A stretch of 64,000 bases of DNA from positions 163,308,001 through 163,372,000 of the forward strand of contig JANJGN010000009.1 in assembly GCA_026770705.1 (NCBI GenBank). Direction: 5' to 3'. This DNA is from Isurus oxyrinchus (lineage: Eukaryota). Positions within the stretch are counted from its first letter, which is position 1. Each line of letters starts with the position of its first letter. A program made the translations under genes and the position numbers. This document shows, piece after piece, positions 20,149 to 63,568 of the stretch. The notes beneath the pieces were generated by a model. That model did not search any database. It saw only the letters and a program-made list of their open reading frames with translations, and had not been told where the DNA came from.

Positions 20149-20185
20149 ATGTGGATTTTGATTCTCCTCATTAGTTCTCTGCCCG
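20149..20185 (+). CDS. Receptor gene 1 exon 1, signal peptide (MWILILLISSLP)
   Basis: ATG, hydrophobic leader and phase-1 GTGAGT donor; identical copy at 63532. Confidence 0.85.
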
Positions 20186-20277
20186 GTGAGTGACAGCCAG
20201 AGCTGGATATTCCGATAATCTTGTTAGTTTAATTCCAGTCTACAGGTTATACAGCGGAGACATGCAAAGTCACCAAA

Positions 20278-20600
20278 GGGGGTCTTGTGGTGTAATGGAT
20301 AGCGTCTCTGTGTCTAAGGGAGAAGCCTCAGGTTCAAGTATCACTTCTGCTCTTGATGGTAATGGAAGGTGCGTTCTAATGTGGCCTAACAGGTAGTTCA
20401 TCAACCTGCAAATCCTACCAACATGCCTAAGGCAAGCGATAAGAAGGGGAGAGACTCTTAGTCAGTCATGCTTGATGTGGAATGGTGCTCCTCATGCTGT
20501 AGTTTCTGGCTCCAGGCTAGTGACATGTTCCAGGGAAAACAGGCTACTGCAAAGAGACATAGGCATGTGCTTTGTCTGCCTCATGTGTCTCTAGATGGGG
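20278..20600 (+). mobile_element. tRNA-derived SINE (old, shared by all three paralogs)
   Basis: A-box TGGTGTAATGG and B-box GGTTCAAGT; paralogous copies at about 47963-48250 and 63680-63980. Confidence 0.55.
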
Positions 20601-22653
20601 GAAGTCTCCTAAGTCATAATGGAAAAAAATACTCAAGCAAAAATAAATGAACAATATTTGTGAAGTATTGTATTACGTTGTGAATATACTATCACACCAT
20701 GGAAATATTTACCAAATAAACTAAACTGCTTTATTAATTGCGAATGGAAAATAAAAGGCAATTTAATTTTTAGAAAGCTATGCCAGCAACATTTTTAAAA
20801 TGAAAGCCTGTTTTAACTGGTATTATTTTTGCCCAATATATACCGAACGCTGCAGTAATAATCCCACATGCAGGACATGTCTCGAGTTTGCAATTGTTTC
20901 TGTTTTTAAAGTACAGTTGATGAAATATTGTTTTGTGAGACCCTTTCAGTGACACCGTTCCTCACCACTATATGCTCAGTCTACATTGCTCTTCCCATAA
21001 GTAGCCTTTTTTGTCATTCTTTAACTTTAAGCAGTTGGATTTTGCTTATCGTTACTGCCCGTTTTAACCATACAATATTACACTGCAATGAAATTTTTGA
21101 TCATTGCCACCACTCCATCATTTATGATGAATCTATTTCCTAACAGGCAATGTTAAACCCTCAGTCCCATCTACTCTAAGGCCACAACTCTGTCAATTCT
21201 ATTACATCAAACCCCCACCTCCGCCCCCTCCCTCCCACCCCCCCCCCCTCCCCCCCCCCTCCCCCCCCCCCCATAATATTTTGTGCCTCTAGTTTCTCAA
21301 TTTTATGCAAAATGCTTTATGTCCTTATGGGCAGACAACTGGAGTTTGTTTCTGTCTGTTTGGCAACTTTCTTTTATTAAACCCTTCTTCTTTCAGCTCT
21401 GATCTCTTTTCCATTCCCTTTTCATCTTTAACCTTCACTCTATCTTCTTCCTTTTCTGACCCTTCTCTCTAGCACTTGAATTATTTTTAGCCTCTATCCT
21501 GTCATTTTACTGCAAACTCTTGCCCCACATAAGTTCCTCTCCCAGCAAGGCCATTGGTCAAATAACTTCAAGTCACGTCCACCCATTCCTCCACAGGCTT
21601 CTCCTCTTCGACACCTGGGCCCACCCAGTGTGTCAGGAATCTCATGAGGCAAATCTCCAGGAAAATAATTACTTTAGTTTCCTTTCTAGTTCTACACTGA
21701 CTACCACGTGACACTGAGAATAATCCTGTGTTAACTGCCTTCCAGGTCCTGCTCATTAATCAATCTCCAAGTTTCTGAATCGTTTTTTTTTGCTGAATCT
21801 TAAATTTCTTCCTTTCTCTGTTTGTGAAGCATGTTCCCTCCCCTTTCCAAATCCTCCTGTTGTACAAGTTGCAGCGAACAAAGTTGAGAAGATGGAAATT
21901 CTGATGAAATCTGCAACACCTCCCACAACACCACGCTTCCAATTTTCCACACCCCCATCATGTCTCTGCCGCAGTCCCAAGGCCTCTTGTTTCCTGCCCC
22001 CGGGCTTCTCATGGCCCAACCCGAGGCCTGTGATTCCTCTGAGTCATCCGAACCTCCCCCCACATTTCCAGTCACTCCCGCAGCAGGCATCTAAATCCCC
22101 ACAGGCTCCAGGCAACCTCCGAGGCCACCTATCAAGTGCTCCAATCCCAAGGTCCGCAAACCTCACCTACTGACATCCCCAAGCCAACCAACGGCTGAAT
22201 ACCCCTGCCTGCCAGGATCCAATTCGTACCCCCCCTCACGTCCCCGCCACACCCTACACTCTCAGGTCAGAGAAAGGACCTATTTGCTCTTGTGGTCTCC
22301 TCCACACTGCTCCCCAACTGACTTCAAGTCAGCTTTGTCAGTCAGGCTTGTTTCTGGGTGCAAAACCTCTTGATGATGCCATACACTGGAGTATATAACA
22401 GTAGGAGGCAGAACCCCAATTTCCAGGGTCCCCACGCTCTACCAGCCCCTGTCAGTGCATCAAGAAAATACCCCAAATATCTCACAAATAAATCATTGCC
22501 TGTGAAGTGCTTTGGAACACTCTGAGGCTGTGATAAGTGTCTATATGAATGATTGCTTTCATCACAAACTTGATGGAATTTAACTCATTAAAATGCATCT
22601 GTTTGAATTAAACAGTTATTTCCTGTTCAATTCCTGAAATGTTCTCTCCTCAG

Positions 22654-22971
22654 TTTTAGGTGCATTGTGGGCAAAAGACAGAGTAACAGGAGTTGTGGGA
22701 AGAGCGATCACAATAGAATGTCACTATGATGCGTGGAGGTACAAGTCACATATAAAATATTGGTGTCGTGGCTGGACTCGCGAGTGTCAGGTTTTAGCAT
22801 CGACAAATTGGCAAAATGGAAGAATATCGATCACAGATAACAAGGCAACAGGAATATTTATTGTTACTATGGAGGATCTTCGCTCAGGAGATACAGGATG
22901 GTACAGCTGTGGTATTGACAAACCTGGCCTCCTCGATTCAATGTTTGCTGTGTGGCTACAAATATCTGATG
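22654..22971 (+). CDS. Receptor gene 1 exon 2, IgV domain (CD300/pIgR/MDIR-like)
   Basis: ITIECHY...KYWC-x6-C...RISITD...DTGWYSCG, with the extra C-C' Cys pair. Phase 1/1 splice sites; alternative in-frame start at 22660. Confidence 0.92.
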
Positions 22972-23389
22972 GTACATTTCTCAGCAGTTTTCTTTATTAA
23001 TCTCTGGTGAAATGTCTGATCAATGTTTTATCTGGGAGGAAACATGACAGCTCCGACATCCCAAAGCCTCTTCATTATTTGTTGAGACATTGGCCTGCAT
23101 ATCCAAGGCGGGTAGGGGTAGTCGGGAAAATTCCTACCTCGGCCCGCCCATCTTTGGTGAAATTGCTGGCAAAGGTGGGATCCTGATTGCTGGGGCGTGG
23201 GGGGCTGGGGGGGGCGGGGGGGGGGGGGGGGGGGGGGGGGCGGGGGTGTGGTGCAGGTTGGAGTTGGGCCAGCCGACCCAGGAAGAAATGGGGAAGCAGC
23301 CGCAGAGGCTGCCGGGTGTGGAGGTGGGCTGTTTAAAAGGTCTGCCTTGGTACCGTGCGGCTTTGTCCCAGTTAAAATCAAAACACAAA

Positions 23390-23745
23390 GATGGACATGA
23401 AAAGGATATTTCCTCTTGTGGGTGAGTCCAGAACTAAGGGGCACTGTTTTAAAATGAGGGGTCACCCTTTTAGGGCAGAAATGAGGAGAATTTTTTTCTC
23501 TCAGAGGGCTGTGTGACTTTGGAATTCTCTGCCTCAGAAGGTGTTGGAGTCGGGGGGTCACTGAGTATTCCTAAGGTGGAGGTAGATGGATTTTTGTTTG
23601 GTAAGGGAATCAAAGGTTATCAGGGATAGATGGGAATGTGGAATTCGAAACACGAAGAGATCAGCCATGATCTCAATGAATGGCAGAGCAGGCTTGAGGG
23701 GCCGAATGGCCTTCATCTGCTCCTATTTCGCATGTTCGTATGTCC
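23390..23745 (+). mobile_element. CR1 LINE 3' fragment
   Basis: Matches the 3' end of the CR1 at 27445-27800 (gaggagaatttttt...gagggccgaatggcc). Confidence 0.75.
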
Positions 23746-24046
23746 CAGGGAGACACAGCTCCTGTCTCATCAGAGTGTTAGACAGATGTTAATGGCACGG
23801 GGTTGTTCCAACTACATGACTAAAGGTGAAAGGGCTCCCCTCTTTTTCCCACTCCTCGGTTGATTGTAACAGGTTTTGAAAGTTAAAAGCATGAATGTAC
23901 CAATTCAGTGTATGTGCTTTTACTGTTTACATGCTGATTCCAAAGACAGACAGATAGTCAGACAGGGTTCCTTAGGTTTAAACAAGAAGGGGATTTGTTT
24001 TTATTACGCTAAAACCCACCTAGGTTAAGATATTTTTTAAAAATAT

Positions 24047-24375
24047 NNNNNNNNNNNNNNNNNNNNNNNNNNNNNNNNNNNNNNNNNNNNNNNNNNNNNN
24101 NNNNNNNNNNNNNNNNNNNNNNNNNNNNNNNNNNNNNNNNNNNNNNNNNNNNNNNNNNNNNNNNNNNNNNNNNNNNNNNNNNNNNNNNNNNNNNNNNNNN
24201 NNNNNNNNNNNNNNNNNNNNNNNNNNNNNNNNNNNNNNNNNNNNNNNNNNNNNNNNNNNNNNNNNNNNNNNNNNNNNNNNNNNNNNNNNNNNNNNNNNNN
24301 NNNNNNNNNNNNNNNNNNNNNNNNNNNNNNNNNNNNNNNNNNNNNNNNNNNNNNNNNNNNNNNNNNNNNNNNNNN
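24047..24375. other. Assembly gap (329 N)
   Basis: Run of N within gene 1 intron 2. Confidence 1.
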
Positions 24376-25149
24376 AGATTAACTTTTGGTCAAATTAAGA
24401 CTTAACAAGAAAAGAAAAATAAATAGAGTTATGGGCTGTAAATCCAGATGCTGTTGTTTGCAACTGAAGCAGATCTTAAAGCTATAGTCCTTGGTTTTCC
24501 TTACAGAAATGCTACTGTGTAACTCATTTTCTTCCGGTAGAATATTTACTATTTGCTGCCCAACTCCGGTATAAGGCAAACAGTCTACAAACTTAGTTGA
24601 GAGAGAGAAACTTTTCTCAAGGAGATTTCAAAAGGTGGTGAGCAGTTTTGGTCATATGATGAGTGCCTATATTGATACACAATGGAAGGCAATTGACAGT
24701 CTGATCATGGTATTGATGGGGATCCCACCAAATGGTCAAACCAATGAAAAACAATAAAAGGTATTAGTTGTTTCTCGCACTTCATTGTGCATAACCAGTT
24801 TCGATAGCTCTCTCCTTGGTTACTGAACCAGTCACGGAGTCAACAAGCCTGAGCTTATTCTTCTTGTAGTTTTGGAGGAATCCCTGACATTGGCAGATGT
24901 GAAATTCTCCAGGAGAGTTGCTTACGCCTGTCCATTGTAATTCATTTTGGAAGATTTCACAAGCTCGACTAAATTGCAGTTGTGAAAAGTCAGGTGACCT
25001 CTGGCAATTATTTTAAACCAGTGTCTTTGTTTCAACGCTTGAAACTACCCTTGAAAATATTCCATTTGTGAATATAGTGATGAAATTAACGTTTAATATT
25101 TGACATCAACACATCTCCATAACAGGTTGATAAGAATCAAAGAGAAATA

Positions 25150-25420
25150 AGAAAATTGATTTAAAGTTGCATGGACAATTGTTCCACCCTAGTTATCAAA
25201 GGTTAAAAGTACTGCTAAAAGATACAAGTGTGGCTGATGAAGTGTGCAAGACTAATAGAAGAGGTTAGTGAAAAGGGTCAACTCTGTAAAATGTTTTGGT
25301 GGACACCATCTCATTTTATTTTAAGCCTCCTATTGGCAGGTGACCTTAACAAAGTAGTTGCCATGGATCTAAAGGTGTTAGACAAAGACAGAAATGTTTT
25401 GTTGCATATGTTATGGACCT
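25150..25420 (+). mobile_element. Degenerate LTR-retrotransposon integrase fragment
   Basis: KLHGQLFHPSYQRLKVLLKD...NKVVAMDLK resembles the integrase Zn-binding region and core start. Confidence 0.4.
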
Positions 25421-25614
25421 AGTGACAGGCTGACAGGGTAACTCAGGCCTTTAGGAGGACAAAGAGATATGGGGATGGATTTTTGAAAGGTTTGGTGTCA
25501 GGGTTAGAGGTAGATTGACGCACAATTTGACACCGCCAGTCTTGTGCCGATTTCCCCACTGCAACTCCTGACCCTGAGACACTTTGAAAGTGGGCAGCTT
25601 GCAGGCAACCAACT

Positions 25615-25890
25615 AACGAACATACGAATTAGGAGCAGGAGTAGGCCATTCGGCCCCTCTAGCCTGCTCCGCCATTCAATAAGATCACGGTTGATCTGAT
25701 TATAACCTCCCACCTACAACCTTTCACTCCATTGTTTCTCAAGAATTTAGCTAGCTCTGCCTTAAAGACATTCAAAGATTCTGCTTCCACTGCCTTTTGA
25801 GGAAGGAAGTTCCAAAGACTCACAACCCTCTGTGAGAAAAAAAATTCTCCTCGTCTCTGTCTTCAATGGATAACCCCTTATTGTTAAACA
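25615..25890 (-). mobile_element. CR1 LINE 3' fragment
   Basis: catacgaattaggagcaggagtaggccattcggccc tail, homologous to 27460-27720. Confidence 0.75.
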
Positions 25891-26344
25891 GTGACCGCTG
25901 GTCCCAACCGAACCAGCAACTTAGGAAATAACATATACCCAAGGGGCCTATTAAAGTCCCATTCCTGCATCAACTGGGATTTCCAGTCGGAAGTGCAGGC
26001 AGACCAATTTGCCCCATCAGGATCATAGATTCCACCCCAGCTGATGAAGTCCTCCAGCATCAGGACCCTGCGCACTGTCCCTGATTGGATGGTGAGCCCG
26101 GTTCCTGGCCTTTAATTCACTGGAGCATTGGAAATTGCAATGGACATGCCTAATGCAGATGTGCAGTGTCAGGACTTGGAACTATCTCCCATATCCAGTT
26201 CCCAAACCTGGTTAAACCTGGAGTGGTAGATGTGAGAATCCAACATGGCAGGCCCTGGCTGAGATGCAGAAGGGCAAAAAAATTGAGGAGTATTTTACAT
26301 TTAGATGTTCAGTCAGTGTCTGAATGTTTGTTTCTTTCCGACAG

Positions 26345-26668
26345 AACCAGTGTCTGTTCCTGTGTTTAGATTTTCATCACCAGCAAATGTCTCATGTTCT
26401 GGGGGTTCAGTGTCTGTCTCCTGTCAGTCTGTCCAGGGATCCCTTCCCATTCAATACACATGGTATGAAAAGATCCTGTCTGAAGATTCAAAGATCTCTG
26501 ACACCAATAAACTGGATCTACATTGTCAATCCTTCAAACAGCAACATCATCAATATTACTGCACAGCCTCAAATAATCAGGGAGAAAAACCCAGTAAAAT
26601 GATTAATGTGTTGGTGATCAATGTAAAAGAAAGGACCTGCAGTTATATGATCCAAATCAGCAGCATTG
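26345..26668 (+). CDS. Receptor gene 1 exon 3, Ig C2/I-type domain
   Basis: EPVSVP...VSCQSVQGSLPIQYTWY...YYCTASN; acag acceptor and GTAAGT donor, phase 1/1. Confidence 0.88.
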
Positions 26669-26899
26669 GTAAGTGGTACTTTATACAAACAATGTGGTTA
26701 ATGATTTTTTAAATTCATGTCTATCCAAACTGGACACAACCTAAGTTGCCTCAGTCACTCTGATCAATTGCAACTGGTCAAATTCCCTCTGATTGGACCC
26801 TGAACAGTTATAAAAAAAGGCCATTCATTTGTATTTTTAATGGAAATTGGATGAAGTCATAAAATATCCCCAAAACATACATAAGTAGTGTAGATGTTG

Positions 26900-27100
26900 G
26901 GGAGACGATGGCATAGTGGTATTGTTGCTGGACTAGTAATTCAGAGACTCAGGGCAATGCTCTGGGGCCCAGGGTTGAAATCCCACCATGGCAGATGGTG
27001 GAATTTGAATTCAATAAAAATCTGGAATCAAGAGTCTAATGATAAACATGAAGGCATTGTTGATTGTTGTAAAAACCCTTCTGGTTCACCAATGACCCTT
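26900..27100 (+). mobile_element. tRNA-derived SINE, 5' part
   Basis: A-box TGGCATAGTGG and B-box-like GGGTTGAAATCCC; related minus-strand copies at 31575-31915 and 56610-56990. Confidence 0.65.
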
Positions 27101-27444
27101 TGGTTCTCACTGGAGGTGGCAGCCTCTCCTGCTTGCAACATAGGTCGTTATAATAAAATAGTTAGAAAATCCACTGCCAATCATTTCCTTTCACTAACGT
27201 CAGATCAAAAAATTGTCTGCTAGATACTGGAAACAACCATTGTCAATATTAGCAGATGATGGTTTAATGTACTCATATGGTTTTCAACTATTTAATTAAC
27301 AGAAAATTTCCTTTAACAGAGGATATCTATATGATATTAACCACTTGTGCACGTTTAATGTCAGCAGTAATTCCTCCGCTAATATTTCCCTGGGTGTTCA
27401 ATGCAGAGCTGAAATTCCTTGTCTGTCCAGGACCAGAAGACCAT

Positions 27445-28970
27445 AAGACCATAAGACATAGGAGCAGAAATTAGGCCATTCAGCCCATCGAGTCTGCTCC
27501 GCCATTCAGTCATGGCTGATAAGTTTCTCAACCCCATTCTCCCACCTTCTCCCTGTAACTTTTGATCCCCTTACCAATCAAGAACCTATCTATCTCGCTC
27601 TTAAATACACTCAGTGACCTGGCCTCCACAGCCTTCTGTGGCAATGAATTCCATAGATTCATCACTCTCTGGCTAAAGAAGTTTCTCCTCATGTCTGTTC
27701 TAAAAGGTCTTCCCTTTACTCTGAGGCTGTGCCCTCGGGTCCTAGTCTCTCCTACTAATGGAAACATCTTCCCCATGTCCACTCTATCCAGGCCTTTCAG
27801 TATTCTGTAAGTTTCAATCAGATTCCCCCCTCATCCTTCTAAACTTCATCGAATATAGACCCAGAGTCCTCAAACATTCCTCATATGTTAAATCTTTCAT
27901 TCCTGGGATCGTTCTCGTGAACCTCCTCTGGACCCTCTCCAGGGCCAGCACATCCTTCCTGAGATACGGGGCCCAAAATTGCTCACAATATTCTAAATGT
28001 GGTCTGATCAGAGCCTTATAAAGCCTCAGCAGCACATCCCTGCTTTTATATTCTAGTACTCTCGAAATAAATGCCAACATTGCATTTGCCTTCCTAACTA
28101 CCGACTCAACCTGCAAGTTAACCTTAAGAGAATCCTGGTCTAGGACTCCCAAGTCCCTTTGCACTCCAGATTCTTGAATTCTCTCCCCATTTAGAAAATA
28201 GTCTATGCCTCTATTCTTCCTACCAAAGTGCATGACCTCACACTTCCCCACGTTGTATTCCATCTGCCACTTCTTTGCCCATTCTCCTAACCTGTCCAAA
28301 TCCTTCTGCAGCCTCCCCGTCTCCTCAATACTACCTGTCCCTCCACCTATTTTTGTATCATCTGCAAACTTAGCCAGGATACCCTCAGTTTCTTCATCTA
28401 GATCATTAATGTATAAAGTGAAAAGTTGTGGTCCCAACACTGACCCCTGCGGAACTCCACTAGTCACTGGCCACCATCCTGAGAAGGACCCCCTTATCCC
28501 CACTCTCTGCCTCCTGCCAGACAGCCAATCTTCTATCCATGCTAGTACCTTGCCTCTAACACCATGGGCTCTTATCTTACTGAGCAGCCTCCTGTGCGGC
28601 ACCTTGTCAAAGGCCTTCTGGAAGTCCAAGTAGATAACATCCATTGGCTCTCCTTTGTCTAACCTACTCATTACCTCCTCAAAGAATTCTAACAGATTTG
28701 TCAGGCGTGACCTCCCCTTGATGAAACCATGCTGACTTTGCCCTATTTTACCATGCACTTCCAAGTATTCTGAAATCTCATCCTTAATAATGGACTCTAA
28801 AATCTTACCAACGACTGAGGTCAGGCTAATCGGCCTGTAATTTCCCATCTTTTGCCTCACTCCCTTCTTAAACAGGGGGGGGTTACATTAGAGATTTTCC
28901 AGTCCTCTGGGACCCTCCCTGACCCCATTGATTCCTGAAAGATCACCACTAATGCCTCCACTATCTCCAC
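27445..28970 (-). mobile_element. CR1 LINE, 5'-truncated, relatively young (348-aa RT ORF at 27814-28860)
   Basis: NYRPISLTS, YLDFQKAFDKV, GVPQGSVLGP and FADD motifs; tandem CCATAAGA tail. Confidence 0.93.
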
Positions 28971-29409
28971 AGTGTAGTGGTTGCTGTGCTCCTGGAATAC
29001 CTTGCCCAGTGGTGGCACAGACCAACTCTCTGGAGGGAACTTTCCTTTTAGTTTGAACAAGGCACAAATGGGGATGGCTGGGTTGCAGTCCTGCAACCTG
29101 AGCCCTTTAAATTCTTTAACAATAACTCTGTACCACCAGTGCCCAGGCGTGGGAAATGAACACAAATTATAAGTAAAACATAGACCACCGTCACTTCTCT
29201 CCTTGCTACCATACAGCCCAAATGGAAAAAAATCAGTAAAAACTAGGAAATAAGAGTACTGGTCCGAACAGTTTTTTTTCCTCCTGGGAGGGGTAAATTC
29301 ATCCAAATCCATTATCCCAAACAAGTCCTGAGGTTCCATTTGAGAAGAGTGCTCTGTTGTTTGACTGCACATGAGAATCAGAGTAACCTGAATATCCAGG
29401 TTATAATAG

Positions 29410-29485
29410 GAGCTGAATATACTTGTGAAGCTTTTGCAATAATATCACCAACAACATCTTCAGGATCTACATCTGTCAGTAAAAG
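29410..29485 (+). CDS. Receptor gene 1 exon 4, Ser/Thr-rich stalk (GAEYTCEAFAIISPTTSSGSTSVSK)
   Basis: Phase 1 to phase 2 exon that exactly bridges exon 3 and the TM exon. The acceptor is weak in pyrimidines. Confidence 0.65.
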
Positions 29486-29967
29486 GTACAATGCTCTCAT
29501 TGCTGATGTTTCCAATAGTACTTCTTTCAAATGAGAGTAAATAATTATCACTCTTGACATAAGGGTTTACAATAATTTCTCAGAATGGAAATAGTGGCTG
29601 GGTTTATATATTGGTACTATGTTAGCCTCTGAACAAAATTGCTATTTTTGTTAGTGGAAATTCAGACTAAGAAGTGAGCATTTTCTGTTTGCCACCCCTC
29701 AGATGGTGCAGTTTTCATTATTCATGTTCATTATGTCACCATTAACCCCACCTCCTGGAGTAGCACCTGTCACACTGCAGCAATGCCAGATTTCCTTCAC
29801 CCTGTGTGTTCTGGACTGTCAGTGACAGGAACATGGCATTCTCTGTCATCTCCCCCTTCTCAGTTGCCCAGTGTTATACATTGTTCTCAAAATGAGAGGG
29901 TTAAAGTTTATCTGCTTCCAGCTGGCTAAGAACTGTCTGTTAGAAGGTGCACAAGGGAACTGTGGGA

Positions 29968-30070
29968 TGATAAAAACAGAAAGTGCTGGAAAAACTCAGC
30001 AGGTCCGGCAGCATCTGTGGAGAGAGAAACAGGGTTAATGTTTCAAGTTGAATATGACTTCTTTGGAACA
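29968..30070 (-). mobile_element. Older Penelope-like terminal fragment
   Basis: Reverse complement of gatgctgccggacctgctgagtttttccag, with a decayed hammerhead. Confidence 0.55.
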
Positions 30071-30420
30071 GTGTGGGGTGATTCTATTCTAAGTTCCTTA
30101 CTCACTGAAGAGATACTTCATCATTGCTATGTTGCATCAGACAGTGGCACTTCCCTCAAATGGCCAGTCACTGCAAAAAATTTTCACTTACGATTTAGCT
30201 TAGCATTACAGTTATACGTTGTGGACATGCTTTAGAAATTTGCTTCATTCGATTTGTATCTAATAACCATGAAGTTTATAAGTAAAACGTTTGTTTTTCA
30301 GCTAAAGCCCCTTTACTCTGCTACTTGCATTGCTATAAAAGATAACAATGTAAAGACCAAATTAATGTTTCAAACATGAATTTCCTTTGAAAGATTTTAT
30401 ATTTCTTCTCTTTTGCTCAG

Positions 30421-30511
30421 TTCCATTGTCTGGGATGTGATACGCTGGGTGCTCATTACACTCCTGGTGATTTGTGCTGTTTCGGGCACATGGTATATGA
30501 GAAAATCAAAG
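30421..30511 (+). CDS. Receptor gene 1 exon 5, TM with Arg (SIVWDVIRWVLITLLVICAVSGTWYMRKSK)
   Basis: Polypyrimidine-CAG acceptor, hydrophobic helix, basic stop-transfer residues and GTGAGG donor; paralog at 55453. Confidence 0.85.
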
Positions 30512-31169
30512 GTGAGGATTTTGGACTTTATAAGATTCATGATGGGCACTTTGTAAGTTCTCAAACACATTGATCACAAATATTGTAAAGATAAACTTGA
30601 GCTGTTGTAAGTATCCACAGGATGAAAGAAAACTTTTTCCAGATTATATGTGTTGGATTTGGCGTGTTCCTGACGTTGTGTGGGAAAGATCGAGTGGATT
30701 GCTTGTCCTGGAGGGTTTCAGACTTCTTGATCCTTATTGTAGCTGCATCCATACAGGAGTGATCAGTCGTTTTAGTCTAGGATAACTTCCAATAATAAAT
30801 GAAAGTTTCACTTTATCACTAAAGATTTTTGTAACACAATGTAGAATGTCCAGATAATCTGTTGAGGCCAGAACACTGGGTGAACTCCTCTACTCTTCTT
30901 TCAATAATGTCAAGGTAGCTTTTCACACCTAAATAAACATATAGGACTCTTCAGATAGTGATTCATCTGACAATAGAGCACGATTTCTGTATGGTGTTGA
31001 AGTGTCAGCTGAGGTAATGTGTTGTAGTCTCTGGCCAAACAGATTCAATCCGGGTGACAGAAATCCATGTGGCAAGTGTTTTATTTCTAACTGATGCCCC
31101 TGGAGTAATTTATCATCTTCAGAACAAACGCAGTGACGCTATGGATTGGATAACCCGCCCATTCTAGAA

Positions 31170-31915
31170 TGTAAATTGTGGGAATGGGATGAGGAACTTA
31201 CATAAGAGCATTGACAGACTAAGTGAATGGACAAATCTATGGCAGACGGAGTTCAGTGTGAGGGAGTGTGAGTTCATCAACTTTGGATCTGAGAAAGACA
31301 AATCAGAATTATTTCTTGGTTGTGAGAGACGAGAAGATACGGAGGAATATTGAGGTTTGTGTGTCCACACATCATTAAACTCTAGTGTACAGGCAGAAAA
31401 AATAATCAAAAAGGCTAATGGAATGTCGGCCTTTATTTTCAGATGGGAATTCAAAAGTGAAGAAGTTGTCCTGAGCCTTGGTCAGAGTCCCTCTGGGATT
31501 TAGCTGTCAGCTTTGGGTATCGAACCACAGGAAAGATATATTGGCCTTGGAACGGGAGCAGTGTCTCTTATTCCTCATCATGGGATGTGGACATCATTTT
31601 CAAGGCCAGCTTTCGCTGCCCATCCCTCATCTCCGCAGCTGAGTGACTTGCTAGGCCATTTCCAAAGGCAGTTAGGAATCAAACTCATTGCTGTGGGCCT
31701 GCAGTCACATGTAGGTGAGACCACATAGGACAAGTGATTTCCTTCCCTAAAGGACATTAGTGAACCAGATGGGCTTTTATGACAGTTGATGATAGGTTTA
31801 TGGTCCCCATTAGACCAGTTTTCAATTCTAGATGCATTAATCAGTTGAATGTTATTAAGTAATTACATTTATATTCAGCGTGAGCCTCTAGATCACCAGT
31901 CCAATGACATGATCA
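31170..31915. mobile_element. Old CR1 fragment (+) with an inserted SINE (-)
   Basis: IDRLSEWTNLWQTEFSV remnant; SINE tail reversed from about 31575. Duplicated at 56200-56990. Confidence 0.6.
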
Positions 31916-33117
31916 CTATTCCTCTATCTCAGCCATATAAATGCACCAGAACGATCGTGGACTAAAGGTGTAAATTATGAGGAGAGGTTGCATAAATTGG
32001 CTTGTATTCCCTTGAACTTGGAGAATGAGGGGGAGCCGAATGAAATATTTAAAAATTTTAAGGGATTCAATATGAAAGGTACAGAGAAACTCCTTGCCCA
32101 TTGGGGAGATTGAGCACCAGGGGTTAAAATCTAAAAATGAGAGCTAAGGCGTTTAGGAATGAAATTAGGAAGCATTTTTTCACACGCATTGTGGTAAAAT
32201 GGAGTGCTAAGTACTTTTAAGAGAATTTAGTTAATCAACCATGTGACTATGTTGGCCAATCGCTACACAGCGTGGGCTACTAAGGTAACTGTAAGTCTAG
32301 AGCTGGAGGTGACTGAAGAAGCACACATGGTGTTAGTGCTCTGTTCTTAGTTCCAATAAACCATCAGTGTTTGTTCAGTTAATCGATCTCTCTCCCTGCC
32401 TATATTGTTTCAAGCACCAACTAATGTGTTAATATCAAGGGCACAGCTAGCGTTCACCAGACAAAGTGATAAGCAAAAACATAAAACTGGCGACAAGGAT
32501 AAACAGGATCCATTAACGACAATGAAAGAAGCTGCTGTAAGCCAGCTACATGACTTCACCACTACATTGAAAGCTGTTTGAAAACGCAGTCTCCTTAATC
32601 ATCGAGTGTGCTGTGGTTTTGGCATCTTGAACCATTCAATCCCGCTTCCAGTGACTGGACTCATTACGTTGGAACGTCTAACATTCTTCTTTACTATTAA
32701 CGACAGAGCAGGGGAGGGCAAGAAGAGGCTGATTCTTTTGCCCAAATGTGGGAACAAAACATATGGGCTGATCTGGAACCTCGTGACACCTAACACCCCC
32801 GACAGGAAGACTTTCGACGAGTTAGTGAACATTGTAAAAAAACACCTGAAGCCAAAGTCCTCAGTCAGGGTGGAGCGTTTTGAATTCATTTCGAGGAATA
32901 GGCTTCCAGGAGGGACAATCGCAGGCTATGAAGCTGCTTTAAAGGAGTTAACGGAATATTGCGAGTTTGGAACTTCAATTAATGACATGTTGAGAGATTA
33001 TTGATATGCAGAATGGGAGATGATGCTATTCAAAAGCGATTGCGATCTGAAACTAATCTAGACTTCAGTAAGGCATTAGAATTGGCGCCAGTCATGGAGA
33101 ACGCTGTTAGCAACTTG

Positions 33118-33739
33118 GGGAGCAGTTTACCCCCGTCGGTGGGGGGTTGAGGGGGGAAGTGTGGGAGTGTATGATGGTGGCCGGATTTCCAATCAGCGCC
33201 CCCAGTCAGGAGGGGGCTGGTGTGCTGCCGTTTTACATGAGCGGGCCAATTAAGGCCCACCCAGCGTGACATCCGCCAGGAAGCGCTATACACTCCCTCA
33301 GCTGGGAGTGTGTGAAAGAGCGCACAAGTCTTCCTGAGGCAAAGTGCTGCCTCAGGGAGGTCGGCTCCCATTCAAACGTTAGCAGAAAGGGAATAAAAAT
33401 ATTTCCTGACGCGTTCCCTCATGTGATGCTTTTATTTAAAAGCCTTCATGACACCCCATCCCGCCCGTGGATGAGGTTTCAAGCCTTTTCCGACACCGGC
33501 CTGGGCACCCGGCCTGTCCGCCAACCTTGGACGGGCAGGTCCACCAATCAAGTTGATTGGTTTTTTAATGGCCTTCATAGGCCGTTGACAGCTGGGCCGG
33601 CGGCTGTGTGCCCGCTGGAACTGCAATTCCAAATGACGTGGGGTGGCATCGGGACGCACGCTCCCGATGTATCCCCAAGTCATTCGACATGTCAGGGAGC
33701 GGCGCCCCTCCCCCACTCGCCGACCGGAAAAAACCTGCC
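33118..33739 (-). mobile_element. Harbinger-family MITE
   Basis: Contains gggccaattaaggccc and other segments shared with the 3265 MITE; interrupts gag. Confidence 0.7.
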
Positions 33740-33995
33740 CACGTTGGGGGCCATGAAAGGTACACAAAATGGTGCCGTCCATCTTGTGGGGCGGGAAGGA
33801 CTGGCAACAGAAAGTTCGAAAATGCCGGACTCTGCAAACGGGCGGAAAATGCCCACTCGGTACAGACCATTGAAGAACAACAGGACGACAGTGAAAACCC
33901 GCCACATTAGTGAGGGAAATGCATCCAGGCAGCCTTCAGGCGATCGACAGTTCAGAAATGTCCAATGTTTTTCCCTGACACTGCAATGATCACAA

Positions 33996-34370
33996 AGGGC
34001 AGAATTTTGCCCTTGGCGGGTGGGCGGACCCCACCAGCTCGGCGGCGGGTGGACAGCCAACCCCCGCCGCCGAAACGGGGCCCGCCGCCATTTTGAGTTG
34101 AGCGACCTGTCCGATGGGAAGCGCTATGAGCTTCCTGTGCGATGGGGTGGGGAGGGATTCCCCTACTGTCAAAGTGCGCTTTGAGGCAAAGTCCTCTCTC
34201 AGCGAGTTTACTGACAGGTAAGAAAAGTCAAAAAGTAGAGAAACATTAAAATTATTAACGTGTCCCCCTCCTGTGACAATGTCACACAAGATGGGACATG
34301 TTAATAAGAAACGCATAAATTTTATTAAATTTTTTAAAAAACGGACATGAAACCTCTTCCCGCCAGTTTA
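33996..34370 (-). mobile_element. Harbinger-family MITE (partial)
   Basis: TIR GGGCAGAATTTTGCCC and the internal palindrome shared with other copies. Confidence 0.75.
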
Positions 34371-35284
34371 CAACCTTCAATGGAATAACTCACATCAAAA
34401 CCTCGCCTCACCACCCCGCCTCTAACCACTCGGCTGAGCGGGTAACCCAAACTTTTAAGTCCAGGATGAAAAAGCTGGACGGGGCTTCCATCAGCAACCA
34501 GGTTGCCAAGGTCCCTGTTCACATACAACGCCACACACGACCACCAGTATTGCCCCTGCTGAATTACTAATGCAGAGACGTCTCTGCACCTGTTTAACTC
34601 TTATCAGGCTAAATTTAGGGGGGCAGGTAGGGGGAATAGAGAGAAGTCAAGGGGCCCAGAAGGGTAGACATGATGGTCATAACCATGAAAGAAAATTCAC
34701 AGTGGGAGACACAGTTCTCATGAAGAACTTTGGAGATGGGCCCAATTGTCTATGAGCTGTGACAGGACCTCTCTCCTATAATGTATAATTAGGCGGCATG
34801 TAGGTCATCTCCAAAGAAGAGAGACAGTTCCACAAGAAGGAGTGCCGTCATCATTTGCATTTGCACGCGGAAAGAATGTCACACAATTTGGAAGAACAAT
34901 TTGGGGCCTATTAGACCCGGGAGAGTCAAAGACACAAATGTGCCCACTTCCACCGAGGAGCCTGGTTGGCAGTTGACCCCTGAGGAGGGGGCTCTTGGAA
35001 AAACCAGCTGAGGCCATTGAACTACAACACTTGGTACATCTGAGGAAGCCTCCTGAGAGACTTGACTTGTAAATAGTTATTCAGGTAAATAATTGGGATA
35101 TTGTGAAGCTTGTCAATTGTACTTTCAAGTAAAGGGGGAGGGATGTGGTAAAATGCGGTGCTATGTACCTTTAAGAAGATGTAGTTAATTGACCATGTGA
35201 CTGTATCGAGCAATTGCTGCACAGCGTGGGCTACTTGGGTAACTGGGAAGTCTAGAGCTGGAGGTGACTGAAGAAGCATACATG

Positions 35285-35938
35285 GGCCAGACATTTTAGC
35301 TCAGCGGGCGGGCGCATGCCTGACCCAACTGAGCGTAAAATGATACGTGATGACGTTGGCCAAGTGTGCTGATGTCACTGTGCAGTCACGCGATGTGCCC
35401 GCCGACAATTAAAAAGCCTATTGAGGCCATTAAGTTATCAATTGTCATTTATTTTTCGCTACCTGTCCAAGCTAATGGTGGGCGAAAAAGCCAAGCGGCC
35501 TTTGCATTTTTTGGCAACCTCATCCATGGGCGGGGTGGGGTTCCCAAAAGCAAATACAAATGAAATAAAAACTTTATTTTTTAATTAAAAACAATGTCCC
35601 TGGGCATGTGACAGAGTCACATGACGGGGACGTGTTTTATTACATTTTTAATTATTAACTTTTTCAGTGTCTTCTTCATCTCCCCGAGGCAGCTCCGTGC
35701 CTCAGGGAGATTATCCCACGCTCTTTTGCGCGCCTGTGCCGAAGTTTGCGCTAAGCCTGCTCACACGCCTGCCCCCCACCCGCCACAGACAGCGCTCAGC
35801 GCTGCCGCTCGCGTGTCACGCTGGGCGGGCTTTAATTGGCCCGCCAGTGTGAAATCGCGGTGCGCTGCCAATCGTGGGCTGTGGCCGGCTTTCCTATTGA
35901 CCCCGCCAATCCCGCATGCCAAGGGCAAAATTGTGCCC
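35285..35938 (+). mobile_element. Harbinger-family MITE in the 3' LTR of element C
   Basis: GGCCAGACATTTT...AAAATTGTGCCC with 3-bp TSD ATG/ACG; the 5' LTR provides the empty site. Confidence 0.85.
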
Positions 35939-36835
35939 ACGGCATTAGTGCTCTGTTCTTAGTTCCAATAAACCGCCAGTGTTTGATCAGTTAATCGGGC
36001 TGTCTGCCTATATTGTTTCAAGCACCAACTAATGTGTTAATATCAAGGGCGCAGCTGGAGTTCACTGGACAAAGCGAACCTGATAATCAAAAACATTAAA
36101 CACACAGTAGGGGAAATCTGGAACTGATCCATCCCAAGGGCTGTGGATGCTGGGTCAATTCAAACTTTCACAGCTGACATCACAAGATATTGGGTAAGGA
36201 TATCGAAAATGTGGATTGGTGTCTGGAAAAGGGCATGAAGCTGCACATAAACCCAACCTTATCTAATTGCATGCTGCAACAGGCTCAAGGGGTTGATTGA
36301 ACTAATAATGCTATGTTCCTATGTAACCCACCAATTATAGAACCCTTTCATGTTTTAATCCAATTTTATCAAAGTGTCGATACAAGACAAGGAAGGGAGG
36401 AAATGGAAAAGGCAGAAAAAAACAGCCCCAGGGATGATTGTTTTTCAATATGAACATGAGGAAACTTAAAATTATGCAGACAGCTCTGAGAGGCTGAGAC
36501 ACAGACACAATGGTATCCTTGCTGGAAACAGCAGTTGGACTGTATAAAATATATTTAATAAAGTAGCCACAGCAATCTACTTCTGCCCATAACACCAGCT
36601 GCAGGGAAACATTACTTACCCATGAGAAAATGGTGTTACATCTATTCAAGAGGAGCACAACTGATAACATTTCCCAGCACACATGCAATGGGTGAGGAGT
36701 GTGATCTCAACACAGCTCCAGTTCATCACAAGCTTTGCCTCAATGTGTTGCGGTTGTCAGAGTTTTGTTCAGAACAGACATGTAAAATAATGCATCGTTC
36801 TCAGTCTCAATTAATCTGATGATTTTCTTTTCCAG

Positions 36836-36871
36836 ACTCTCAGTGAATCAGATCCTCACAGCTTGACCTAA
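36836..36871 (+). CDS. Receptor gene 1 exon 6, short cytoplasmic tail (TLSESDPHSLT*)
   Basis: Strong acceptor ttttcttttccag, phase 0; conserved at 57984-58019. Confidence 0.75.
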   Translation, partial: TLSESDPHSLT

Positions 36872-37273
36872 GAGGGAAAATGAAGATTCAGCCATTGCAT
36901 CGACATAGATGGAACTTTTCATCCTGACCAAATATTCATTATTTATCCAGCTTTGAACATTTCTTTTAACAATGCTACACAATAGAAAGGATTTTGCCAT
37001 TAAATGATTTTGACCATTAAATTAGCAGAGGAATCATAAAGCAAAACAATGGCTGCAAACTTCAAGTTGTATATTTAGATCTTGATAATAATTTATCTGT
37101 TTGCTGACTTAGTGTCTAGACAACTGGATTTCTTGTTTTAAGACAATCAGATTCTGCAAGAAAAAGGCAACTTGAATGAATCAATGGAAACCAGCGGCTC
37201 CAATAATATGTTCCTTGTTTACATGGGATGGAACCTTTATAACTGTGGAATGGGAGACCTAATGGTATAAAAA

Positions 37274-51558: not shown

Positions 51559-51864
51559 GTGCATTGTGGGCAAAAGAGACAGTAACAGGAGTTGTGGGAA
51601 GAGCGATCACAATAGAATGTCACTATGATGCAACAGACCAGTCAAACAGGAAATATTGGTGTCACAACTGGAATCGCCAGTGTTATGTTTTCGTAATGAC
51701 AAGCTGGCAAAATCCAAGAATGTTGATCACAGATAACAAGTCACAAGGAATATTTGCTGTTACTATGAAGGAACTTCACTCAGAAAATGCCGGATCGTAC
51801 AGCTGCGGTATTCAACAGCCTGGCAATGATCTCGTGTTTGCTGTAGAGCTACAAATATCTTACG
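51559..51864 (+). CDS. Gene 2 IgV exon (open frame)
   Basis: ITIECHY...KYWCHNWNRQC...YSCG. The upstream acceptor is CAA where gene 1 has CAG; the in-frame TCAG acceptor is intact. Confidence 0.75.
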
Positions 51865-53597
51865 GTACATTTCTCAGCGATTTTCTTTATTATTCTCAAC
51901 TGAAATGTCTGCTCAATGTTTTATCTGGGAGGAAACGTGACAGCTCTGATATCCCGAGGCTCCACAGCAATGCAGAGTCTTGCAGGTAAAGGGCAGAGGT
52001 CGGGAAATCCGACTCATGTTACCCAAACCCAATTCGTCACCTGTCCAAATTTCTGACCAAGAATTTCAACTATTAAGGATTGTGTCAGGTATCACATGGG
52101 ATCTTCAGAGCACTTCCCTGCCTCTGAACTTTTTTAAAATTCATTCATGGGATGTGGGTGTCACTGGCTAGGCCAGCATTTATTGCTCATCCCTAATTGC
52201 CCTTGAGAAGGCAGTGGTGAGAATTAAATATCAAACTGTCAGGTGTTTACATTCAGACTAAACTAAACGTCAGGCAATAACAAAAGCAGTGAACAGCAAG
52301 TTGTTACTGATGGTGTAAACTCTTTGAAAATTATAAAAATAGAATCAATCTACAGAGCTGAACAGGTTTCATAGTCTCCCTGATAGGATGGGTGTGACAC
52401 ACAGAGTCAACAAGATACTTGGGTTAGCCTAACAGAGTTCAACTTTACAAGTGAACTAAAGTGAAATTGTAAAGGTGTTTTGATCGGAAAAGAAGCACTC
52501 TTTTTTAACTGTTGAGACAATTGCCCATAACTTCCAAGCTACCAGGTGTCGTAATGGAGGGCACCCCAAAGATGCAACGGGGAACCATCCCATCCCCCAG
52601 AATTCTCCAGGTAAGGATTGCCCAGCAATTGCCCAAGAAATTTAAACTTCCACTGGGCAGTTGCACTGCATCAGAAACCATCCAACGGTCTGATTCAAAT
52701 CGCAGACTTCGGATCGTTCTGGCTGCCTTACAGGAATAATAACCCAGGAAATGTTAGAAGAATTAAAACCACTTATAACTTCTGGGTATTTGTAGCACTG
52801 GCCCCCCACAGGACTCCTCCCAAACCCCTGACCCACCCACATAACCCCCATGACCACCCGACCCCGCACCCACCCCCCCCCACCCCCCACAATGAACACC
52901 CAACCTCCCCCACTGACCACCCGACCCCAATCCCCCAACCACCCAATTACCCTGCAACCAAGCAACATACACCCCAATCCACCAGGAGCCCCAGCGGAGC
53001 CCCCCACCCCGACTGACCCTTTCCACTGACCACCCAATCCCCATCCTCCTGACCAGCCGACCCCCCGACTGAGGCCCCCATCGACCCCACAACTGAACAG
53101 CCGCCCAACCCCCACCCCGTACTGACCACCCAACATCCCCCCCACCCACACTCCTGCTCACTTACCTTACCTCCGAGTCTCCAGCCCTCGACTAAAGCCC
53201 TGGGGGACCGGGCTGCCCTATGTGGTTCTCACCCCGGCATGAGTCAGAAGGTTGGGTGAGAAAGGAATGGCTGGGTTTCTGGGTAAGTAACTAGGAGCAG
53301 AGCAGCAGTCCGATTCTGACTGCCACTTGGTGCAAGTTCAGGGCCATTATCTTCCTCCCAAGCATATCTCCAGATCAGGATCAAAATAATTTTTAATTTT
53401 GAGAGCTTTTCTTGAGGATTAATCAGGGGCTAATTTTTTATTTTGTGGGGTCTATTTTTTGGTTTTCAGGTATTCCCTCTTCATTCTCATTAACTCCTTT
53501 ATTAGGCGATGCAGTAGTAACGTTACCGTCTGTACTTGTGGTTTTATCAGGATTTATTTCTTTAGATAGATAAGATAGTATAATTACCGAAGACTAT

Positions 53598-54320
53598 GGC
53601 CAGAACTTGCCTGTTGGCGATTTGGGGGCGGGGCCCTCTCGCCGAGGGGAAAATGACGAGGGATGATGTCAGGAGGAACCCCCAACGTCATCCCGGTCCA
53701 TTCGAATCGTCAGGAAGGCGGGTGGACAGCGCAATCAGCTGTGTGCCCGCCAACCTGTCAATGGCCAATTGAGGCCACCGACAGGACAATTAAGCCAATT
53801 AAAGGACCTGCCCGTCCAACGTTAAGGCTGGTGGGCAGGCCAGGAACCCCAGCGGGCTTCTGAAAAAACTGGCGGGATGAGGTTTCATGTCCGTTTTTAA
53901 GAACTTTAATGAAGTTTCTGCGCTTCTTATTAACATGTCCCATCTCGTGTGACATTGTCACATGAGGGGGACATGTTAATAATCTTTTTATTTTTCTGTT
54001 TTTCAAAGTTTTTTAGACTGTCAGTAATCTCCCTGAGGCAGCACTTAGTCTCAGGGAGATGTGAGTTCTTTTGTGCGCATTGTGAAAGAGCGCACTCTGA
54101 CGGATGGGGATTCCCTCCCTTCCCCACCCCCACCCCCCCCCCCCCCCCCCCCCCACCCTCGCACAGGAGGCGCATAGCGCTTCCCGTCAAGCAGCCCGCT
54201 GGGCGGGGCCTTCATTGGCCCGCCCACTCAAAATGGCGGCAGGCCCCCTTTCGGCGGCGGGGGTCAGCTGCCTGCCCACCACCACCAAGCCGGTGGGGCC
54301 CGCACACCCATCAAGGGCAA
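53598..54320 (+). mobile_element. Harbinger-family MITE
   Basis: Colinear with 3265-3949; hairpin at 53927-53982. Confidence 0.82.
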
Positions 54321-54324
54321 TGAG

Positions 54325-54457
54325 TGTTTCTGTGTGCATGTGTATGTGTGCACGTGTCTGTGTGCGTGTGCACGTGTCCGTGTGTGTGTGCACGTGTCCG
54401 TGTGTGCGTGTGTGCGTGTGTGGTGTGTGTGTGTGTGGTGTGTGTGTGTGTGTGTGT
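54325..54457. repeat. (GT)n-rich microsatellite
   Basis: Directly visible. Confidence 0.95.
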
Positions 54458-54700
54458 AATATTTACCTTTTAACCTGAAATCTACAAATGTTTCTGTTAA
54501 CTTACTATGAATAATCTCCCATATTCCATTTCCAAAATGAAAATTCTAAATACCTGGCACTAGGTAGCTTATTAGAAATGAGTCTCAGATGTGCAGCCCC
54601 TGGACTGTGGGAAGGGAGGAGACGAAAGTGCAGGTATTTATCTCCTGAATTTGAATGGGAAGGTGTCTTCCTCCATATTTCCAAAAATAAACATATTATA

Positions 54701-54794
54701 GAAGGGTCATGAGGACTCGAAACGTCAACTCTTTTCTTCTCCGCCGATGCTGCCAGACCTGCTGAGTTTTTCCAGGTAATTCTGTTTTTGTTTT
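54701..54794 (+). mobile_element. Truncated Penelope-like insertion with 14-bp flanking direct repeat
   Basis: ATATTATAGAAGGG at 54693-54706 and 54795-54808; body matches 13351-13444. Confidence 0.8.
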
Positions 54795-55452
54795 ATATTA
54801 TAGAAGGGACCTGTCTCGTGTAAGAGTTTACAGGTTGACTGACTGACAGACATTGCATTTTCACTGTCCACAAATAAGTTTAAGTTGCTGCCAAGTGCCT
54901 TTCTGTGTTCCTTCTCTTGGAAACTCGTCTGAAAATGTAGCATTTGTCAGGGTCTCTAACAAATCTCCTGATTGTTATATTATCCCACAAATAAAGACAC
55001 TTCGTAATATTCTGTGTCAAATGAAATCCTTTCGGAATAAAAATGGGTTCTGCTGTAATCATCAAAATAGATTGAACACATTTCACTTTGCTGAAGCTAA
55101 GTTAACTAAAAGCTGATGGTCTTTGGTTTTAAAATAAACTTATTTTATTTTATTGGAAACTGTCCATTTCATAAAGCGCTTATATATTTGGCATATAAGT
55201 GCATATAGTTTACTGAATCAGAAGGCAAAGCAATAAAAACTCATGTAATTCTGATCTTCACTGTGTGTGGATATACATTCAAAACTCATGAAGTTAATGA
55301 GTCCAATTTAGTTTATTTTTCGAGCTAAAGTCCCTTGTCTCTGTTACTTATATTGCTACAAAAGATTACAGTGTAAAGAGGAGATTAATGTTTGAAACAT
55401 GAAGCAGTCTCAGTTCCTTTGAATGATTTTATATTCGTCCCCTTTTGCTCAG

Positions 55453-55544
55453 TTCCATTGTGTGGGATGTGACACGCTGGGCGATCTTTACCTTCCTGCT
55501 GATTGGTGCTGTTTCAGTCACATGGGTGCACGAGAAAATCTAAG
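55453..55544 (+). pseudogene. Gene 2 TM exon (Arg-bearing, frameshifted)
   Basis: SIVWDVTRWAIFTFLLIGAVSVTWVHEKI*; 92 nt versus 91 nt in gene 1. Confidence 0.8.
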
Positions 55545-57983: not shown

Positions 57984-58019
57984 ACACTCAACGAATCAGA
58001 TCCTCAGAGCTTGACCTAA
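57984..58019 (+). pseudogene. Gene 2 tail exon (TLNESDPQSLT*)
   Basis: Paralog of 36836-36871 with conserved downstream UTR. Confidence 0.7.
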
Positions 58020-63531: not shown

Positions 63532-63568
63532 ATGTGGATTTTGATTCTCCTCATTAGTTCTCTGCCCG
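63532..63568 (+). CDS. Receptor gene 3 exon 1, signal peptide (gene continues beyond the window)
   Basis: Identical to 20149-20185, with GTGAGT donor. Confidence 0.85.

Follow-up and report, generated by a model that had tools for sequence, protein, structure and literature searches.

An MDIR-family receptor gene with an arginine in its predicted transmembrane helix at the edge of a paired receptor array in Isurus oxyrinchus

The DNA analysed here, called the window, is a stretch of 64,000 nucleotides from Isurus oxyrinchus (contig JANJGN010000009.1 of assembly GCA_026770705.1; G000:C9:163308001-163372000). At 20149..36871 it contains a gene with the layout of an intact type I membrane receptor of the MDIR family, predicted to comprise a V domain, a C2 domain, a transmembrane (TM) helix with an Arg near its outer end and a tail without signalling motif. 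The gene is a new, otherwise ordinary member of a known but little-studied family. Its six exons, all with AG acceptors and GT donors and with cumulative phases of 1, 1, 1, 2 and 0, add up to 882 nt and encode 293 amino acids without internal stop. The features of the gene are the following, in window coordinates:

20149..20185, + strand: exon 1, 37 nt, start codon ATG and signal peptide, donor in phase 1
22654..22971, + strand: exon 2, end of the signal peptide and CD300/pIgR-type V domain; V-set match in Pfam with E 7.5e-10
26345..26668, + strand: exon 3, FCRL-like C2 domain; best PDB match FCRL5
29410..29485, + strand: exon 4, stalk, 76 nt, providing C232 and a Ser/Thr-rich stretch; matches the stalks of the shark proteins P0015 and P0020
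30421..30511, + strand: exon 5, TM helix with W256-D-V-I-R260-W; the Arg is followed by 18 uncharged residues and these by RKSK
36836..36871, + strand: coding part of exon 6, short Tyr-free tail and TAA stop; conserved in paralogs and in MDIR5
36999..37021, + strand: two ATTAAA hexamers, candidate poly(A) signals in the 3' untranslated region

A reading made earlier from the letters of the window, here called the sequence-only reading, had proposed these six exons, an extra cysteine pair in the V domain, a TM segment beginning with WDVIRW, and a tail devoid of Tyr. All of these were confirmed. Besides the canonical pair C35-C98, the V domain has the pair C50/C57, the TM Arg is residue 260 (codon 30443-30445), and the tail, RKSKTLSESDPHSLT, lacks Tyr. 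For exon 2, an alternative in-frame acceptor at 22660 would yield a protein of 291 amino acids. The acceptor at 22654 is favoured because paralogs, skate MDIR proteins and a contig agree: the upstream AG is kept in 27 of 27 modelled genes of the array described below, skate MDIR2, MDIR3 and MDIR5 read P-V-S-G-A at the joint between leader and V domain, and a contig of sequencing run X4 aligns from 22653. Exon 1 and its flanks are 96% alike to the leader of the next array gene at 63532. V and C2 exons were found in one record in two contigs (X3 record 16 and X4 record 23) with 3-7% differences; these derive from one sample of a related organism, its tissue not being given and its status as RNA a guess, and the run search, in which no RNA run was listed as containing the gene, gave shares of 0.04-0.20 that point to related organisms. 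The joints between stalk and TM and between TM and tail were not among the contig matches listed, and both rest on protein alignments. In Pfam, exon 3 was Ig-like, just below the curated cut-offs, and exons 4 and 5 gave no match.

Compared to the paralogs, the proportion of nonsynonymous differences (pN) is below that of synonymous ones (pS) in the C2 exon (0.100 vs 0.183) and in the TM exon (0.073 vs 0.132). For the V exon a pairwise pN/pS of 1.86 was obtained, and the differences among paralogs cluster in loop regions. Positive selection on the V domain was considered, but the excess of replacements is not significant, a tree-free count giving 1.33 (95% 0.77-3.06) and, with this gene left aside, 1.71 (0.95-4.38, p 0.066).

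To which family the protein belongs followed from comparisons with named proteins. MDIRs are multigene activating and inhibitory receptors similar to CD300, TREM and pIgR (PMC3031540). When the V exon was compared to proteins of greater length, 106 of 124 candidates matched, and all named ones come from sharks and rays. The V domain is 58-63% identical over its full length to skate MDIR2, MDIR3 and MDIR5. The spliced protein matches the last V-C2-stalk-TM-tail unit of skate MDIR5 from end to end (156 of 264 aligned positions identical, 59%), and similar alignments were obtained with P0015 from Mustelus (197/267), P0020 from Heptranchias (173/264) and MDIR2, which has the same V-C2 layout (152/282). 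Since its alignments with named proteins run colinearly from the V domain through C2, stalk and TM to the tail, the spliced protein is not a product of chance. MDIR5 of the clearnose skate (ABC86800.1) shares with it the leader, V, C2, stalk, a TM of the form W-x3-R-W and a short Tyr-free tail with ES(D/E)P. Differences concern the number of V-C2 units, one here and two in MDIR5, the sequence DxxR instead of KxxR, and the location of this gene in an array whose 27 near-identical members result from recent expansion. Unlike it, MDIR2 and MDIR3 have uncharged TMs and tails of the type containing an immunoreceptor tyrosine-based inhibitory motif (ITIM). The comparison covered MDIR2, MDIR3 and MDIR5, with MDIR1 and MDIR4 outside it; MDIR1 reportedly has a charged TM according to the original MDIR paper. 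Thus, the V domain, a C2 domain behind it, the TM and tail class of MDIR5, and a large multigene family with ITIM and charged-TM forms were all found here. A link to skate MDIRs had already been drawn in the sequence-only reading, but the relationship is closer than it claimed, the gene being an MDIR of the MDIR5 TM class, and its assignment to cartilaginous fish with a CD300/pIgR-type V domain was upheld by the homologues and by PDB sequence matches.

Other searches were negative. The TM-tail region of P0020 found none of seven candidates among shorter proteins at E <= 10, the TM exon had no match among PDB sequences at the same threshold, and a search of the ESM Atlas returned scores of 0.81 only, below a usable level. 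Literature searches for MDIR, NxxR and TMs of fish CD300/pIgR-like proteins, with the original MDIR paper and most subscription papers outside reach, revealed no paper on the array or the W-x3-R-W motif. The skate database model P0096 fuses an MDIR5-type receptor to a TRIM69-like gene, which suggests that a TRIM gene flanks the skate cluster.

In the PDB, pIgR and CD300f come nearest to the V exon, and FCRL5 does so for the C2 exon; no LILR, KIR, GPVI or FcalphaRI chain was present among 37 V-domain and 19 C2-domain matches. By these similarities, the C2 domain is FCRL-like, not LILR-like, and the ectodomain is not of the type that leukocyte receptor complex (LRC) genes encode. The second cysteine pair, C50-x6-C57 in the C-C' region, agrees with the Cx6-7C motif of the CD300/pIgR/TREM V-set group (range taken from bioRxiv 2022.04.21.489081). 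An alignment-based AlphaFold model of the skate relative P0087 (pLDDT 76.6) superposes in its V domain on mouse CD300lf with a TM-score of 0.83-0.85 over the target at 40% identity; this fold match is that of the relative, the single-sequence model of the gene itself (pLDDT 43) being too poor. The mammalian CD300 and pIgR/FCAMR family thus shares the V domain with extra cysteine pair and the occurrence of paired ITIM and charged-TM members, but it lacks the FCRL-like C2 domain added here, and in place of the N-terminal Arg it has a central Lys.

Besides its core, the C2 region has four cysteines at extra or extension positions, C136, C179 and C217 in exon 3 and C232 in exon 4. Of 33 C2 domains with a stalk cysteine behind them, 32 have a cysteine of the C136 type, against 34 of 83 that precede a V or C2 domain, a count of rows that are not independent and from which 22 unclassified domains were left out. 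Because of this covariation, an additional disulfide between C136 and C232 in the stalk is likely.

The W-x3-R-W helix defines a TM class that was found by pattern in 34 of the 106 shark and ray proteins. With positions counted from the Arg, Trp is at R-4 in 33 of the 34, whereas R-3 varies (K in 17, N in 5, S in 4, D in 3). Tyr is at R-7 in 18 of 34, and DYT was not seen. As the pattern itself required Arg, its invariance was retested with the position masked. Arg was then found in 36 of 47 alignments across the position, and the other 11 were weak (E >= 0.14) and led to signal peptides or ITIM-type TMs. Lys never replaces Arg, all 36 aligned TMs of the class having Arg. YxxI/L/V is absent from 24 of 25 terminal Arg-type tails.

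The same class is present outside cartilaginous fish. A V-exon search starting from the distal, more divergent part of the cluster yielded 23 proteins, five of them with a W-x3-R-W TM (whale shark, three sturgeon and one gar). The sturgeon and gar CD300/pIgR-like (CMRF35-like) proteins P0115, P0121, P0123 and P0122 carry it after V domains, as here, but these are database models with V-only ectodomains and no C2. Two sturgeon or paddlefish relatives, P0118 and P0119, have uncharged TMs and Tyr-containing tails. Since W-x3-R-W is found in sharks, sturgeon and gar, the helix predates the split between sharks and bony fish and is native to the CD300/pIgR-like lineage.

These findings bear on the proposal, made in the sequence-only reading, that the gene newly joins a CD300 domain to an LRC-type TM. 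While the activating-type architecture (Arg TM, no tail motif) was corroborated, the joining was not: the same TM is already present in skate MDIR5 and in CD300/pIgR-like proteins of sturgeon and gar. The LRC TM is described as an NxxR and DYT consensus at the N end with acidic residues at the C end (PMC6557307), and NxxR-type TMs are also reported from Xenopus FCRL and SLAM receptors (PMC6557307, PMC2413239, PMC4536121). Only the position of the Arg is shared, R260 being followed by 18 uncharged residues; DxxR takes the place of NxxR, SSI precedes the TM instead of DYT, and WYMRKSK follows with no acidic residue. Receptors with NxxR TMs (LILRA, NCR1, FcalphaRI, GPVI, OSCAR, Xenopus FCRL/SLAM) resemble this one in the outer-TM Arg, the short tail and the existence of ITIM paralogs (PMC6557307, PMC2413239), but differ from it in the absence of invariant flanking Trp, in NxxR, DYT and the acidic C end, and in an LRC-type ectodomain. 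An LRC-style TM is therefore to be taken as an analogy only.

The gene is part of a cluster. Of the 39 genomic matches of the V exon, 38 fall within C9:163.13-164.45 Mb, and all 34 matches of the C2 exon lie in the same interval. In the region analysed, 163.048-164.510 Mb, exons were grouped into 38 units, and 27 genes were modelled, number 5 (the gene described here) and genes 7-32. The models leave aside unit 6, a remnant lying in the window, units 1-4 and 33-38, which are partial or diverge more strongly, and a V-less ITIM-type fragment near 163.46 Mb. The array spans 0.95 Mb, all 27 modelled genes are open, and gene 5 is the outermost intact member. An Arg TM and a short tail form the end of 15 genes; the other 12 have an uncharged TM, and every one of their tails contains the two ITIM-type motifs ITYA(A/V)V and VIYSGV. 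Apart from gene 5, two array elements lie in the window:

51559..58019, + strand: remnant paralog (unit 6), likely a pseudogene; it has a V exon at 51559-51864, an out-of-frame Arg-TM exon of 92 nt at 55453-55544 and a tail at 57984-58019
63532..63568, + strand: leader exon of gene 7, the next array gene, an ITIM-type paralog of 395 amino acids that continues beyond the window

In the remnant (47580-58416) the promoter is kept, the leader exon is deleted with a junction near 47960, and a divergent V exon is intact; its TM exon is 1 nt longer and thus out of frame, and no C2 or stalk exon was found in it.

Comparisons within the array indicated exchange between the two tail types. V exons of identical DNA occur on both in two groups, 10I, 18I, 21I, 22R, 29R, 31R and 19I, 24I, 25R (I, ITIM-type; R, Arg-type). 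The best ITIM-type match over V and C2 is 92.9-100% for 14 of the 15 Arg-type genes and 84.4% for gene 5. Trees reject a single clade of Arg-type genes (p-AU 0.002 for V, 0.003 for C2), the V and C2 trees needing 6 and 7 label changes, respectively, no fewer than shuffled labels. Three Arg/ITIM pairs are 98.6-99.0% identical over a stretch that starts at the promoter and reaches about 0.9 kb into the stalk-TM intron, where homology ends; in a fourth pair it is 98.8% and then 96.5% across an indel, with homology ending likewise. On the simplest reading, repeated crossover or conversion would move ligand-binding heads between two tail cassettes. Assembly duplication as a source of the shared V exons was considered and discarded: array copies are not exact assembly duplicates, because the compared copies differ by about 1% throughout, and no run of N is present in the array outside the window. 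Local mis-phasing between array units may have occurred.

Several peculiarities were observed in the array. Two Arg-type genes (G000:C9:163695101-163716280 and 164121147-164142656) have a duplicated C2 exon (V-C2-C2, 418 amino acids, open) together with a stalk known elsewhere from ITIM-type genes, which points to recent crossover. One V lineage (genes 10, 11, 13, 18, 21, 22, 23, 26, 29 and 31) has an added cysteine beside that of the C strand (YWCC), leaving an odd number of cysteines in the domain. In intron 5 of gene 5, an insertion of about 3.9 kb (window 32190-36094), absent from the neighbouring paralog, has ends that are alike (32190-32487 and 35144-36101) and looks like a decayed long terminal repeat element.

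Coupling to FcR-gamma or CD3-zeta through the Arg, as activating partner of the ITIM paralogs, is the most likely mechanism and a probable one, because of the N-terminal Arg rule, the adaptor TM exons in the genome, the short tail and the ITIM paralogs. According to that rule, an N-terminal TM Arg selects FcR-gamma and a central Lys selects DAP12, surrounding residues mattering little (PMC1440944). FcR-gamma is also the partner of Xenopus FCRL receptors whose TM has an N-terminal Arg (PMC2413239), and the Arg of NKp46 and NKp30 pairs with CD3-zeta or FcR-gamma (PMC6514059). Three adaptor-like TM exons, each with Asp, are present in the assembly (G000): L082 and L083, with FcR-gamma as best PDB match (E 2e-10), are FcR-gamma-like, and L081 is CD3-zeta-like. 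L082 and L083, nearly the same in sequence, are on two small unplaced contigs (C1723 and C1648) and could represent a duplicate gene or two haplotypes. Arg260 would dock on the Asp pair of the FcR-gamma (or CD3-zeta) dimer in a three-helix Arg-Asp-Asp assembly, which would lead to signalling via Syk and the immunoreceptor tyrosine-based activation motif. The receptor would presumably be expressed on leukocytes and bind a ligand with its V domain, possibly lipids, immunoglobulins or microbial surfaces as is said of CD300 and pIgR. Recombination upstream of the stalk-TM intron would then move one ligand-binding head between activating and inhibitory tails.

A number of points weigh against this mechanism. 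Asp is at R-3 and not the Asn of NxxR, and Ser is at R-7, where 11 of the other 14 Arg-type array genes have Tyr and the rest Cys. No other array member diverges as much as gene 5 (84% in its best V+C2 match), and no transcript of exactly this gene was seen in the run search. Flanked by two Trp, the Arg could be located at the headgroup interface; in 17 of 34 relatives Lys is at R-3 as well. In the original MDIR paper, MDIR5 was reportedly described as having neither activating nor inhibitory motifs. For FcalphaRI, a poly-Leu TM with Arg alone assembled at about 11% of the wild type level, so context counts for FcR-gamma (PMC1440944), and the charged TM residue of catfish LITR 2.6b is dispensable for adaptor binding (PMC4810170).

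Some of these observations would also be explained by a non-signalling MDIR, acting as decoy, tether or competitor of the ITIM paralogs, in which the Arg is an interfacial anchor and binds no adaptor. The Trp at R-4 (33/34) and R+1 and the frequent Lys at R-3 resemble an aromatic belt with snorkelling basic residues, and the missing NxxR and the description of MDIR5 fit as well. Such a receptor is nevertheless unlikely. Lys replaces Arg in none of 36 TMs, as expected for an Arg-specific FcR-gamma site (PMC1440944). With 20 residues from W256 to W276, the Arg would be buried in the bilayer by about one helical turn, W-x3-R-W persists in sturgeon and gar, and the 15 intact Arg-type genes have been kept beside the 12 ITIM genes.

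It is more doubtful still that an activating receptor is present which uses DAP12 or DAP10, or whose binding to FcR-gamma does not depend on the Arg. In favour of such an adaptor, DAP12 is the usual partner of activating CD300 and TREM receptors in mammals. NKp44 is an example of its use (PMC6514059), and the TM Lys of LITR 2.6b has no bearing on FcR-gamma binding, DAP12 binding being gained once this Lys is neutralised (PMC4810170). However, the TM has no central Lys, and the N-terminal position of the Arg mismatches the Asp of DAP12 (PMC1440944). One marginal match (E 0.41) among 59 in a search for DAP10-family candidates reads as no such exon and was dismissed as spurious, DAP12 itself not having been searched for.

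That the six-exon form is not the main product, the gene being silent or V-C2 being spliced to exons of the following gene so that a longer modular receptor results, is very improbable. In its favour, an orthologous-looking V-C2 is joined directly to the V that follows in the white shark model P0011, which has an ITIM tail at its end, MDIR3 and MDIR5 consist of several units, and no read of this organism was seen. Against it, all splice sites and the frame are intact, C2 and TM exons have pN below pS, and C136, which goes with a following stalk cysteine in 32 of 33 cases, is present. Fused database models of tandem arrays are, moreover, often prediction errors. The V used by P0011 matches that of the remnant paralog.

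The shark array pairs activating-type and inhibitory receptors with identical V exons, like mammalian KIR, LILR and CD300 loci. The paired array and the old W-x3-R-W helix are notable, yet fit known patterns of paired receptors. On a wider view, the helix would be a module for docking on FcR-gamma that dates back to the first jawed vertebrates, belongs natively to the CD300/pIgR lineage and may have given rise to the NxxR helix found in LRC receptors and in Xenopus FCRL/SLAM receptors; the array would be a KIR/LILR-like system swapping identical heads between activating and inhibitory tails. This is speculative and, taken as a whole, rather unlikely; if true, it would provide the first testable activating receptor-adaptor pair in cartilaginous fish. 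As the Arg-TM class is common to sharks, rays, sturgeon and gar, the adaptor choice of cartilaginous-fish receptors is directly testable by co-expression. Database models often fuse or miss such array genes (P0011, P0071).

The surroundings of the cluster were also inspected. An exon of the IL10 family is present on C9, 14.5 Mb from the cluster, and one AHCY-family fragment was detected among the flanking open reading frames, 90 of 453 of which were scanned. This AdoHcyase-family fragment (E 7e-8; L137:7184-7594, G000:C9 about 164.507 Mb) lies just past the cluster and is a possible synteny marker. A weak V match (31%, E 5.7e-4) about 160 kb from the IL10-family exon (G000:C9:148590788-148749216) marks a candidate locus syntenic with mammalian PIGR/FCAMR. 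At the distal end of the cluster (G000:C9:164326581-164472056; L068-L080, L133-L134), divergent V-only genes are located, 29-43% identical to the V domain described here. Two of these (164334721 and 164432328) have W-x3-R-W TM exons, in a layout closer to that of the bony-fish CD300/pIgR-like genes.

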